A stretch of DNA of 31,691 nucleotides from a virus (lineage: Duplodnaviria > Heunggongvirae > Uroviricota > Caudoviricetes). This document shows positions 982 to 31,691 of the stretch, piece by piece. The DNA lies in IMG/VR virus record IMGVR_UViG_2778261559_000026. One strand, given 5' to 3'. The position numbers are program-made. Numbering within the stretch: position 1 is the stretch's first letter; every line of letters starts with the position of its first letter.

Positions 982-3900
982 GTTAAATAGGCGAGTAATC
1001 TCCTGTTTAGGTTTCACTAATATCATGTACCCACAATAACAAGAGGGGTACAACAATGAACATCGGTAAAGCAATCATCAACTACGCAGCGCGTCGCAAC
1101 ATGGACATTACCTTGATTGACGATGAGACCGTGGCGTTCTGGGAAGCGGATAACGATTGTGAATGGATGTTCTCCTACATGATTGGTAATGATGGTTTCC
1201 TCCACTTTAAAGGCAATGTGTATCTGCCGCAGGATATTAAAGAAGAATTACCAGCGTGCATCGATACAGACAAGAAGCTGAAAGAAGTAATCAACTTTAT
1301 CGCTAAAGAGTTTATCAGCAAGAAGTAATGTCTAATTTGGCGGGTACTATTCCCGCCGATTTAAACGGAATACAGACAATGTTCAATATTATGATTCGTA
1401 AATTTGGTGAGATGACTTTCGAGAAAGCTGGTGTTGCTCGTACCGAAGAAGAAGCAATGGCCTTCGTTCTGGTAGCACTGAGATCATCACCTGAGATTAT
1501 CGACGCTGAATATGTTACGGCTGAGGGTGAGATTAAAGAGATTAAAGCGGTGGCTAAGGAATTAGGTGTTAAAGGTTTCCGTAAGCTGAGATTGACCCGT
1601 GAGACTTATGTAATTGGACAGCAAGGACAATACCTAGATGAGAATACCGTGATTGTTCTACTGAATAAGATTACCCGCTACGGTTGGAAGATTGAGCAAT
1701 ATAAAACGTGTTTCGAATTATACGAAAAAGGTTTGCTGGATACTCTGACCATCGTTCGCGCTTAATTAATTTCTAATTTGGTGGGTGTAATTCCCACCGC
1801 TTTTTAAACTGGAGAATCAAACATGTTAGCTTTTATCTCATTCGTGGGAGGTAGTCTCACAACTATGATTAGTCTTTCTTATCTTGTCGTTAGTATGGGG
1901 TGAGCAATGAAACAATTTCATGATGGCATTTCATCTAAGACATTCAAGAAAGAATATTCGCTGAGTATTAACTGGATTGATTTGATTGGTGCGGTTGTGT
2001 TTGGTCTGATTATTAGCATTAACTTTTAACGATATAAATATATCGTAATTCAAACAACAAGAGGAAATTCTACTATGAAAAAGATTATCGCTGGCATCGT
2101 TCTTACTATGGGTTTGGTTGGTACTGCTAATGCTAATACCTATTATGTGTGTAATTCCTACTTCGAACATAAAGGAGATGATACACACTACCTTCGTGAT
2201 GGCGACCGTTATTATCATGCACCGTCTGGCAAATACCGTGGTTTTATCGGTGTGAAAGTTCGCGTGAATGATGATAATAGTCAATTTGCTTTCAACGATC
2301 CGGTATATGATAAGACAATCAAAAGTCCTAAATTAAAAGAAGATAAGAACGAGAAAGAAGAATATTATGGTTCCGAAGATGGTAAATCCTACATCAAGTA
2401 TCTGCATTCTGTTGATGGCGCGCCTATATTTGATGTTAAAAAAGGTGATACGTCTTATTCCCTGATTAGCTGCCGTGAAATTCTTTAATCTTTAATCACC
2501 TAGCCCCTATCGTTATAATACGCGGTAGGGGCGTTTTTGTTTGGAAATGGTATGAAAACTAAACTGTATTCGTATATTCGCTTCTCGTCTATGCGTCAGA
2601 ATGATGGTTCGAGTTATGAACGACAAATCAGGATGGCTAGAGAGATTGCGGTAAAGTATGACCTTGAACTGGTAAATGATTATCAGGATCTGGGTGTATC
2701 TGCGTTTAAGGGTGCTAACTCCAAAACAGGGGCGCTATCTCGTTTCCTTGATGCAATAGGTAGATCCGTTCCTGTTGGTAGCTGGCTATTCATCGAAAAC
2801 TTGGACCGTTTATCCCGTGCCGATATTGTCAGTGCGCAGGAGTTATTCCTTTCAATCATCCGTAGGGGGATAACCATTGTTACTGGCATGGATAACAAGA
2901 TCTACTCGCTGGATACTGTTACCGCTAACCCGATGGACCTGATGTTCTCCATCCTTTTATTCATCCGTGGTAATGAGGAAAGCCAGACTAAGCGCAATCG
3001 TACTAACTCAAGCGCACTGATTAAGATTAAAGCTCATCAAGAAAATCCACAAAATCCGGCTGTTGCAATCGAGGAAATTGGAAAGAATATGTGGTGGACT
3101 GATACCACATCTGGTTATGTGCTTCCTCATCCGGTCTTCTTCCCTATTGTTCAGGAAGTTGTGGAATTACGCAGGAATGGACGGTCAACCTCCGAGATAC
3201 TGGATCACCTTAACGCGACATACACACCACCACCAGCCGCAAGTCACAAGAGGCATTCAAACTGGTCACGGGCAATGATTGAAAGGTTGTTCCATACCCG
3301 CGCTTTGATTGGTATCAAGGAAATCTCTGTAGATGGCGTTAAGTATGAGTTAAAGGATTATTATCCTCGTGTGCTAGATGACGCTGAGTTTTATCACCTT
3401 AAGAAAAGCATTGGTGTTAGAGCATGTAACTTTGGAGACAAAGAAGAAGCTAAACCTATTCCCTTGCTTAGTGGTGCTGGTCTATTGAAATGTGAACATT
3501 GCGGTTCCGCTATGGTTAAGGTGAAAGGAACAAACAGACGGCCTAACCAATATCGTTATTCATGCGATGCAATGCGCTCTAGTCGTATTGAATGTGTGCA
3601 TACAAACTGGAGTTTTCGCGGCGACCAATTAGAGAAAGCTGTATTGCAATTGCTGGCTGATAAAATCTGGATTGCTGAAGATAAGGCTAATCCGGTTCCG
3701 GCTTTGAAAGTACAGATTGATGAAATATCACGCAAGATTGATAACCTGATTACCCTTTCTGCTATGACAGGAGCAACGAAGGAGCTAGCCGATCAGATTA
3801 CTACCCTCAATAGCGAGCGTGAAACACACTTCTGGATTCTGGTTAACCAATTCCACCCATTCGGAACGAGCAATAATACCGAAAGCACAAACGCGGTAAT

Positions 3901-30900: not shown

Positions 30901-31691
30901 TAACGTTTATAAATCACCACTCAAACCAGCTAAAGAAAATCCAAACGCAATGGAGGGTAAATCCAAACAGGATACTATTGGACGTGTTAACACTTATAAC
31001 ATCTGGGTAAGCAAAAAAGGTGACATGCGTCTTGAAGTTATTGAACCAAAATATGATTCTGAATATAAACACACTCAATTTGCATGTGACATGGTAGACG
31101 CAGAGTAAGAGGTGAAATGATGCAATTCAATAGCATGAAGATTACTCAAAAATGGTGGGATGCGATGAAAGCTAACCACCAGAACGATATTAATTAAGTA
31201 ACATTTTAGATATACAGCACCCAGCTAACAGATCACCTTTTATGGATTTCATTATAACCCCTTTGATCTGGAAACTATGTTAATTAGTTGATTTCTAAGC
31301 CTTGTCCTTGTGATGGGGCTTTTTATTGCAAAATTTTTAGTTATTTTGGGTTGACTACATTCGGGTTGCCAATTCGCCTGGCTAACTCTTGCTGAGTGAT
31401 TTCTGACTGTAAAAAAGCATTTAACAGCAATACTTTAGAGGCGACGCTCAAAGGTACTTCAATAAAGTGATCATGACTATTTAATGGCGAAGGTAACGGG
31501 ATAAGCTCGTTATCTTCAAAATAAAAATCAAATGCGGTCAGTAAAGCATCTTTTGCCGCTTCCATCGCTTCAGCGACAGTTTCGCCCTGCGTCAACGCTT
31601 CAGGGATATCCACAAAAGAAACCATATAACCGCCTTCCGGCGCGGGTGTAAGAGTGACGGGATAACGCATAATTTCGACTGTCCCTCGCAT

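Follow-up and report, generated by a model that had tools for sequence, protein, structure and literature searches.

Introduction

Serine integrases perform a conservative 2-bp exchange. The described systems closest to the one studied here are the Firmicutes prophages A118/phi10403S of Listeria (in comK) and SPbeta of Bacillus subtilis (in spsM), together with phiC31 and Bxb1, which have in common a three-domain integrase with a coiled coil, a non-palindromic 2-bp crossover, no target duplication, and a dyad-symmetric phage attachment site (attP). In A118/phi10403S and SPbeta, the bacterial attachment site (attB) is intragenic and excision rebuilds the gene. The pairs phi10403S-comK and SPbeta-spsM, as well as the skin element in sigK, each combine an interrupted functional host gene with working excision machinery and a defined host programme that acts as a trigger. 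A different set of relevant elements is that of the cryptic prophages of Escherichia coli, e.g., e14, Rac, and DLP12, which have lost essential phage genes by deletion and are fixed in the chromosome. Their integrases are tyrosine integrases, mostly acting at transfer RNA (tRNA) or 3'-end sites where the target gene stays functional. Here, we analyse a stretch of 31,691 nt (IMG/VR record IMGVR_UViG_2778261559_000026; hereafter the window, meaning the whole stretch) in which a Caudoviricetes prophage interrupts hicB, the antitoxin gene of the hicAB toxin-antitoxin locus of E. coli.

The prophage resembles the serine-integrase systems in the type of integrase, in its crossover and attP, and in its intragenic attB, from which precise excision would restore a functional host gene. 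It is set apart from them by its E. coli host, by its toxin-antitoxin target gene, by an extra C-terminal beta domain predicted at residues 460-540 of the family integrase, and, in the window copy, by a truncated recombinase where phi10403S, SPbeta, and skin have a working one. Like the cryptic prophages, it has lost essential phage genes by deletion and would be fixed in the chromosome, and its relatives show independent integrase lesions; unlike e14, Rac, and DLP12, it has a serine integrase that truly splits the target and keeps most of its structural module. We conclude with high confidence that the element is a prophage that has become defective (grounded), that it belongs to an uncultured siphovirus lineage of E. 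coli, Shigella, and Salmonella, and that it leaves hicB stably split.

A large serine recombinase site within hicB

We aligned both ends of the element to the empty locus of E. coli K-12 MC4100. The hicB gene lies in two minus-strand pieces, a 3' piece at 901-1014 (codons 102-138 and the stop) and a 5' piece at 31368-31670 (codons 1-101), and the insert measures 30,353 bp (1015-31367, with the TT core included once). On the left side, the sequence agrees with attB as far as 1014, and on the right side from 31366 onward, which defines a 2-bp overlap: the TT found at both junctions is the only sequence common to attL, attR, and attB. The uninterrupted K-12 site reads ...CTCCTGTTTAGGT[TT]GCCAATTCGCC..., attL reads ...TTTAGGT[TT]CACTAATATCATG..., and attR reads ...GACTACATTCGGG[TT]GCCAATTCGCC.... 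On the hicB sense strand, the core is AA and makes up the first two bases of codon K102. The exchange was conservative at this crossover, there is no target-site duplication, and the joined flanks give the exact hicB: in-silico excision (window 1-1014 joined to 31368-end) yields a HicB of 138 amino acids (aa) identical to that of K-12, and the intact protein is also identical to chain B of PDB 6hpb.

These alignments bear out most of what had been proposed from the sequence alone, i.e., that the two hicB-like pieces are halves of one gene, that a large serine recombinase integrated the prophage at a short site inside it, that a crossover dinucleotide could be defined against K-12, and that precise excision would restore hicB. 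The sequence-only reading had placed the element at 1015-31357. Its left boundary stands, and the right one has to be moved: the real junction is at 31366-31367, about 10-25 bp away from 31341/31357. Position 31341 belongs to the stop codon that the phage arm contributes to the shortened hicB open reading frame (ORF) and is not an element boundary. On the minus strand, the ORF at 31341-31691 reads the first 101 residues of HicB, then the phage-encoded NPNVVNPK, then a stop; the segment 901-1014 encodes the last 37 residues of HicB (KPKQEITRLF...SLVMV*). RefSeq labels the equivalent of the latter a partial hicB pseudogene in the genomes H2 and DEC5A. The GC content of the insert is about 0.40-0.43 (0.36-0.46 in most 1-kb intervals, with one at 0.49), compared with 0.50 for the flank.

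A large serine recombinase is expected to leave a non-palindromic 2-bp core and no target duplication, and to act on a symmetric attP. The rebuilt attP (...TATTTTGGGTTGACTACATTCGGG TT CACTAATATCATGTACCCACAATA...) has 16 of 24 positions in dyad symmetry, which compares with a background of 6.1 +/- 2.2 and a maximum of 14 over 5,000 random positions of the window. The symmetry of attB is weak and not significant (7/18). We also noted one divergent attL, in bases 1-60 of the metagenome-derived record IMGVR_UViG_3300045988_095018, that reads ...AGGTTTGCCTAATATC instead of ...AGGTTTCACTAATATC. There, the phage arm agrees with attB for three further bases (GCC), which may reflect an attP variant or a shifted exchange.

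The integrase and the 4,936-bp deletion

The integrase gene near the left end of the prophage encodes the Resolvase (E 1.5e-14), Recombinase, and Zn_ribbon_recom domains of Pfam and matches phrog_95 (integrase) of the PHROG database. Its homologues, found in E. coli, Shigella, Salmonella, E. fergusonii, and Edwardsiella, number in the hundreds (in clusters of up to 975 members) and are overwhelmingly 557-561 aa long. Among 38 aligned homologues, R10 and S12 are invariant, and C314, C317, C338, and C348, as well as R461 and G529 of the C-terminal domain, are nearly so. A PDB sequence search matched the catalytic domain alone, and we then used an AlphaFold2 model of a full-length protein that is 99% identical (mean predicted local distance difference test score of 81.5) for Foldseek searches. 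The best matches were complexes of full-length serine integrases with DNA, namely 9dxd and relatives, 9rah (phiC31), and 4kis (LI integrase). The model comprises a catalytic domain (1-125), a long helix E (127-164), a recombinase domain (196-291), a zinc ribbon (312-377), a two-helix coiled coil (382-406 and 410-436), and the extra beta-rich C-terminal domain.

The window copy is not complete. The sequence-only reading was right that the element carries a serine integrase gene, but this gene is not intact: the protein is native up to residue 425 of 559 (...TTLNSERET), where the second coiled-coil helix is cut, and continues with 40 unrelated residues. Residues 426-559 are gone, the conserved C-terminal domain included. 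The window copy retains intact catalytic, recombinase, and zinc-ribbon domains; the complete coiled-coil motif is absent from it and present in the full-length relatives.

The cause becomes clear from the nearest relative, the prophage of E. coli O55:H7 DEC5A (NZ_CP038394.1, 2722774-2758064), which is 35.3 kb long, sits at the same site, and is 99.1% identical. Pairwise BLAST aligns window positions 1-3827 to positions 7984-11811 of the DEC5A locus (L003) and positions 3828-24150 to 16748-37066. The window lacks the intervening 4,936 bp. Six genes are missing outright, among them one for a D-Ala-D-Ala carboxypeptidase-type endolysin, and the whole lysis cassette is lost. On the other side of the scar, the tail-tip protein (lambda J-like) is without its C-terminal Phage_Tail_Tip and Ig_GpJ_C receptor-binding domains. 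The prophage of DEC5A and its siblings, found in 36 further complete genomes, share attB and the attP arms with the window; DEC5A still has its lysis genes, an integrase of 559 aa, and a tail-tip protein of 1,248 aa. The head-tail gene set, which had been called full, is thus not so (its tail-tip protein is cut at residue 586 of 1,248), and the lysis cassette is absent as well. The element retains genes for terminase, portal, capsid, tape measure, and tail tube and has lost genes essential for the lytic cycle, as in defective prophages.

Could the deletion be an artefact of assembly, with a prophage that is in fact intact like that of DEC5A? The junction is absent from all 5,426 complete E. 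coli genomes of RefSeq, and its sole other instance, in IMG/VR UViG 2526164662_000045 (31,106 bp; 99.987% identical across the junction), probably comes from the same or a sister strain and may be the same or a sister assembly. The breakpoint, however, is clean and lies in unique sequence with no repeats on either side, unlike the usual collapse artefacts, and each of the two ORFs that meet there continues across the junction into a short out-of-frame tail. We therefore regard an artefact as extremely unlikely.

The effect of the lesion on the integrase can be estimated from LI integrase, which without its coiled coil only relaxes supercoils and gives a small fraction of undirected products (PMC5499577). 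Since directed recombination is lost in that case, we infer by analogy that the truncated integrase is inactive or nearly so. Another lesion was found in the contig Logan ERR13620891_57 (L032; locus 3001-4409), where the same integrase gene stops at residue 460 and is followed by unrelated sequence. We considered whether the corresponding 460-aa protein (P0001) represented the truncation seen in the window and rejected this, as the break at residue 460 is a different lesion. The sequence after residue 460 may be the end of an insertion sequence; it resembles an IS3-family inverted repeat. A stretch resembling it adjoins integrase residue 286 in bases 1-90 of a further locus (L031). The independent truncation in the Logan contig indicates that decay of the integrase gene in place recurs in the family.

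A grounded prophage or a reversible switch

We propose the following scenario. A large serine recombinase would have joined the dyad-symmetric attP to attB in hicB, cutting at the TT/AA dinucleotide of codon 102, which lies midway in the helix-turn-helix of HicB, without target duplication. Later, an illegitimate deletion of 4,936 bp joined codon 425 of the integrase gene to an internal point of the tail-tip gene. Lost with it were the end of the coiled coil and the C-terminal domain of the integrase, all lysis genes, and the half of the tail tip that binds the receptor. Even after induction, the phage could neither lyse its host nor adsorb, and the element can thus no longer produce infectious particles. 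Efficient excision is very probably no longer possible, so hicB would stay split, with P2 (the promoter that HicB represses) derepressed and HicA still neutralised by the shortened HicB, hereafter HicB(1-101)+8. The window copy would then be a decayed remnant, and no switching is expected from it.

The sequence-only reading had favoured another outcome, in which precise excision restores hicB, re-integration splits it again, and the host toggles hicAB by such active lysogeny. The perfect hicB that excision would give, the undecayed state of both halves, the conservative 2-bp exchange typical of serine integrases, and the intact relatives at the same site in 37 genomes all agree with this idea, and the mechanism would allow a reversible insertion in relatives such as those of DEC5A and H2. 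A switch nevertheless needs a working recombinase, and that of the window is cut in the coiled coil and lacks residues 426-559 with the conserved C-terminal domain; the proposal is therefore not supported for this copy. Pfam and PHROGs recognised no directionality factor, the phage-encoded protein on which excision by such recombinases depends, among the small ORFs of the window, although the three that adjoin the integrase gene are candidates. The attP junction was found neither as an exact 28-mer nor as a degenerate 33-mer in IMG/VR, whose records of this family are predicted prophages cut at gene starts and not free genomes, nor as a 33-mer in the metagenome contigs of the Joint Genome Institute (JGI). 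Our literature searches returned nothing on a prophage or an integration site in hicB (ydcQ) or on a switch there, and nothing ties excision to a host signal; the supplements of Durrant et al. 2022, possibly incomplete, had no match to attB or to the integrase. Close cultured relatives are also lacking: the integrase is at most ~30% identical to those of cultured phages (Burkholderia Bcep176, lambdoid YbcK-type) and the capsid at most 43%. The negative results on the attP junction, cultured relatives, and literature are weak, and they leave the switch without positive support. We find it very unlikely that the window copy operates as one.

An intermediate situation is conceivable, in which the element is defective as a phage and yet moves at low frequency, driven by its deregulated integrase or by a related full-length one in trans. 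Without its coiled coil, LI integrase converted a small fraction of attL x attR substrate to deletion products, and the wild type yielded none (PMC5499577), so that the loss of coiled-coil auto-inhibition could allow this reaction without a cofactor. The intact domains of the window integrase fit this possibility, as do the genomes with two related prophages. Against it, more than the tip of the coiled coil was lost, since the C-terminal domain with R461 and G529 went as well. Cross-reaction with the integrase type that targets ycdX (see below), which differs mainly in the DNA-reading domains, is uncertain, and the window holds no second copy. Such mobility seems improbable to us, if a little less so than the switch.

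The same observations temper the conclusion that the prophage is grounded. As the LI mutant still yields some attL x attR products, rare excision may still occur, and the inactivity of the window integrase is deduced from that analogue. A related intact integrase elsewhere in the genome, of which only 31.7 kb are visible, could act in trans, and the genome of UTME-9, which holds two related prophages, provides a precedent. The undecayed hicB halves fit a recent event and do not prove permanence. Finally, the neutralisation of HicA by HicB(1-101)+8 is itself a prediction.

Predicted consequences for HicB and hicAB

The split gene encodes a type II antitoxin with an N-terminal HicB_lk_antitox domain (residues 3-67 of the intact K-12 protein) and a C-terminal HTH_3 domain (residues 88-134). 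The insertion point falls inside the helix-turn-helix, and the truncated ORF keeps only HicB_lk_antitox. Both halves are undecayed at the protein level. The toxin gene hicA is outside the window; in DEC5A, it is intact beside the 5' fragment of hicB.

According to a review (PMC11594946), HicA is neutralised by the N-terminal domain of HicB, the operator of P2, which is a promoter for the antitoxin only, is bound by the C-terminal helix-turn-helix, and E. coli HicB dimerises via the strand that follows the helix-turn-helix. Because HicB(1-101)+8 retains only the N-terminal domain, it should still bind HicA and should be unable to repress P2 and with it the operon. Being devoid of the C-terminal strand, it may also have lost dimerisation.

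As reported in PMC2215328, which cites Button et al., deletion of ydcQ (hicB) is viable in K-12, suppresses the lethality of rpoE loss, and lowers envelope stress responses. Since K-12 tolerates hicB loss, its restoration is not obviously required, which sets this locus apart from comK, spsM, and sigK. Whether lysogens resemble a hicB null would hinge on the stability of HicB(1-101)+8.

For the intact members of the family, one may speculate that the insertion in hicB is functional and not incidental, the phage operating a switch on the toxin-antitoxin module. In this case, residence would part the HicA-neutralising domain from the DNA-binding domain, derepress P2, and lock HicA off, thereby disarming a possible HicA-based abortive-infection defence and mimicking the envelope-stress phenotype of a hicB null, and excision would restore the control of hicAB. 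We consider this unlikely, though less so than either form of mobility discussed above for the window copy.

Recurrence of the insertion and change of target

We searched for the empty and occupied site in the complete E. coli genomes. Window positions 1-1400 were matched in 5,412 of the 5,426 genomes (megablast), and 5,390 of these matches stop at base 1014; the same attL junction as in the window occurs in 22 genomes. At the right end, uninterrupted genomes match only from ~31360. A probe of 151 bp across attR (78 bp of phage arm and 73 bp of hicB, counted at a coverage of at least 80%) identified the same phage arm/hicB junction in 37 genomes, and in the others only its hicB part was matched. 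The 37 genomes are of human, pig, cattle, poultry, goose, and river-water origin, and related prophages are present in 63 genomes. Integration in hicB is thus a repeated, site-specific event. About 0.7% of complete E. coli genomes have hicB split within its DNA-binding domain, which bears on how the hicAB and envelope-stress phenotypes of such strains are read.

A sister prophage in E. coli UTME-12 (NZ_CP157095.1; L033, locus 8353-47129) appears to split ycdX instead of hicB. Its attP arms are nearly the same as those of the hicB type, and its junctions also show TT, the probable core. The two integrases are 92.1% identical; 33 of their 44 differences fall in residues 176-350, i.e., in the recombinase and zinc-ribbon domains, and one in residues 1-150. 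The hicB-type and ycdX-type enzymes are hence a natural pair for the study of target change and possibly for integrase engineering, and the attB/attP pair with its TT core is now defined for an enterobacterial large serine integrase without characterised relative. The family likewise lends itself to work on the interplay of phages and toxin-antitoxin systems. We found no prior description in the literature of the attB in hicB, of its TT core, or of the sister that appears to target ycdX.

Gene content of the rest of the prophage

The layout is of siphovirus type, with the structural genes on the minus strand, as established with PHROG and Pfam scans and the RefSeq annotation of near-identical copies (Table 1).

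Table 1. Features of the window, with strand and basis of assignment.
Feature	Position	Strand	Basis or remark
ydcR, 5' part	1-822	-	RefSeq annotation under match; GC 0.50; host flank
hicB 3' fragment	901-1014	-	Rest of helix-turn-helix and C-terminus; translation KPKQEITRLFNLHHATKIDAVQLAAKALGKELSLVMV*
attL crossover dinucleotide TT	1013-1014		Junction alignment
Inserted prophage	1015-31367		Deletion apart, 99.1% identity to the DEC5A prophage (35.3 kb), which occupies the same site
Three small phage ORFs adjoining the integrase gene	1056-1328, 1328-1765, 2075-2488	+	phrog_6147, phrog_14908 (function-unknown PHROGs) or no match; no Pfam
Truncated large serine recombinase gene	2552-3949	+	Native residues 1-425 (to 3826), then 40 unrelated
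Truncated tail-tip (lambda J-like) gene	3785-5584	-	Residues 1-586 of 1,248 native
Deletion scar (4,936 bp)	3827-3828		Window vs DEC5A; no obvious microhomology
DUF6950-like	5584-6087	-	PHROG, RefSeq names in DEC5A; tail module 5584-11835
Homing endonuclease	6050-6823	-	phrog_314; NUMOD3 in RefSeq; between two tail genes
Tail protein (DUF2163)	6898-7551	-	PHROG, RefSeq names in DEC5A
Distal tail protein	7551-8111	-	PHROG, RefSeq names in DEC5A
Tape measure	8162-10591	-	PHROG, RefSeq names in DEC5A
ORF without family match	10603-10944	-	Within tail module
Tail assembly chaperone-like	10974-11282	-	PHROG, RefSeq names in DEC5A
Tail tube	11365-11835	-	PHROG, RefSeq names in DEC5A
Tail fibre, 1,142 aa, T-even gp37-like distal part	11924-15352	-	phrog_1699, long tail fibre distal subunit, E 4e-112
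Major-tail-like	15426-16259	-	PHROG, RefSeq names; module also has two small ORFs
Protease-capsid fusion	17115-19121	-	PHROG, RefSeq names
Portal	19167-20678	-	PHROG, RefSeq names
Head-tail joining	20689-21183	-	PHROG, RefSeq names
Large terminase	21256-23163	-	PHROG, RefSeq names; head/packaging module 15426-23163
Rha/Ant-like regulator	24416-25315	-	Early/accessory region 23250-31108
ORF-poor AT-rich stretch, 1.6 kb	~26100-27700		Iterons 26712-26886
318-aa coiled-coil protein	27748-28704	+	Early/accessory region
Small-terminase-like	29415-29969	-	Early/accessory region
LprI-family protein	30329-31108	+	Early/accessory region
Terminator-like hairpin and T run, phage right end before attR	31297-31321	+	Consensus match only
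Truncated hicB ORF	31341-31670	-	HicB 1-101 and 8 phage-encoded residues; stop 31341-31343
attR crossover dinucleotide TT	31366-31367		Junction alignment

The tail fibre is the only part of the prophage with nucleotide matches to sequenced phages. Over ~12100-14490, it is 79-87% identical to the distal long-tail-fibre gene (gp37) of virulent T4-like phages such as KFS-EC and MIZ4, which points to a recent exchange of a host-range module between a temperate siphovirus and T-even myoviruses. The homing endonuclease is kept in DEC5A and is missing at the same position in the prophages of H2 and UTME-12. No RNA family of Rfam was found in the window. ARAGORN reported a single tRNA, a tRNA-Glu(ttc) of 91 nt at 16414-16504 (+), which we discarded as probably spurious because it lies antisense within an ORF of the structural region and has no Rfam match.

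In the early region, neither a replication protein nor a CI-type repressor was recognised in the window by Pfam or PHROGs. Five to six iteron-like repeats TTTCAGGGGCAAAAAT, spaced by 21-22 nt, lie upstream of a small ORF (27394-27633) and of the gene for the 318-aa protein. DEC5A has at the same place a different repeat (TAGTGTAGGTTT, 22 nt spacing) adjoined by an unrelated 333-aa protein. The iterons and the adjoining gene look like a swapped specificity module, either an origin with its initiator or an operator with its repressor. The 318-aa gene is replaced whole in DEC5A, and there is no BLAST similarity between the two proteins; the window protein has no family match and contains an internal tandem duplication, with two copies of LEEKDQIIEAQKAEIE[K/E]LKA. 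Upstream of the iterons, the non-coding stretch carries a perfect 20-nt direct repeat, CAGTCGGGCAAAGCCCTCCT, at 26170-26189 and 26558-26577 (388 bp apart), each copy of which holds a small GGGC/GCCC hairpin.

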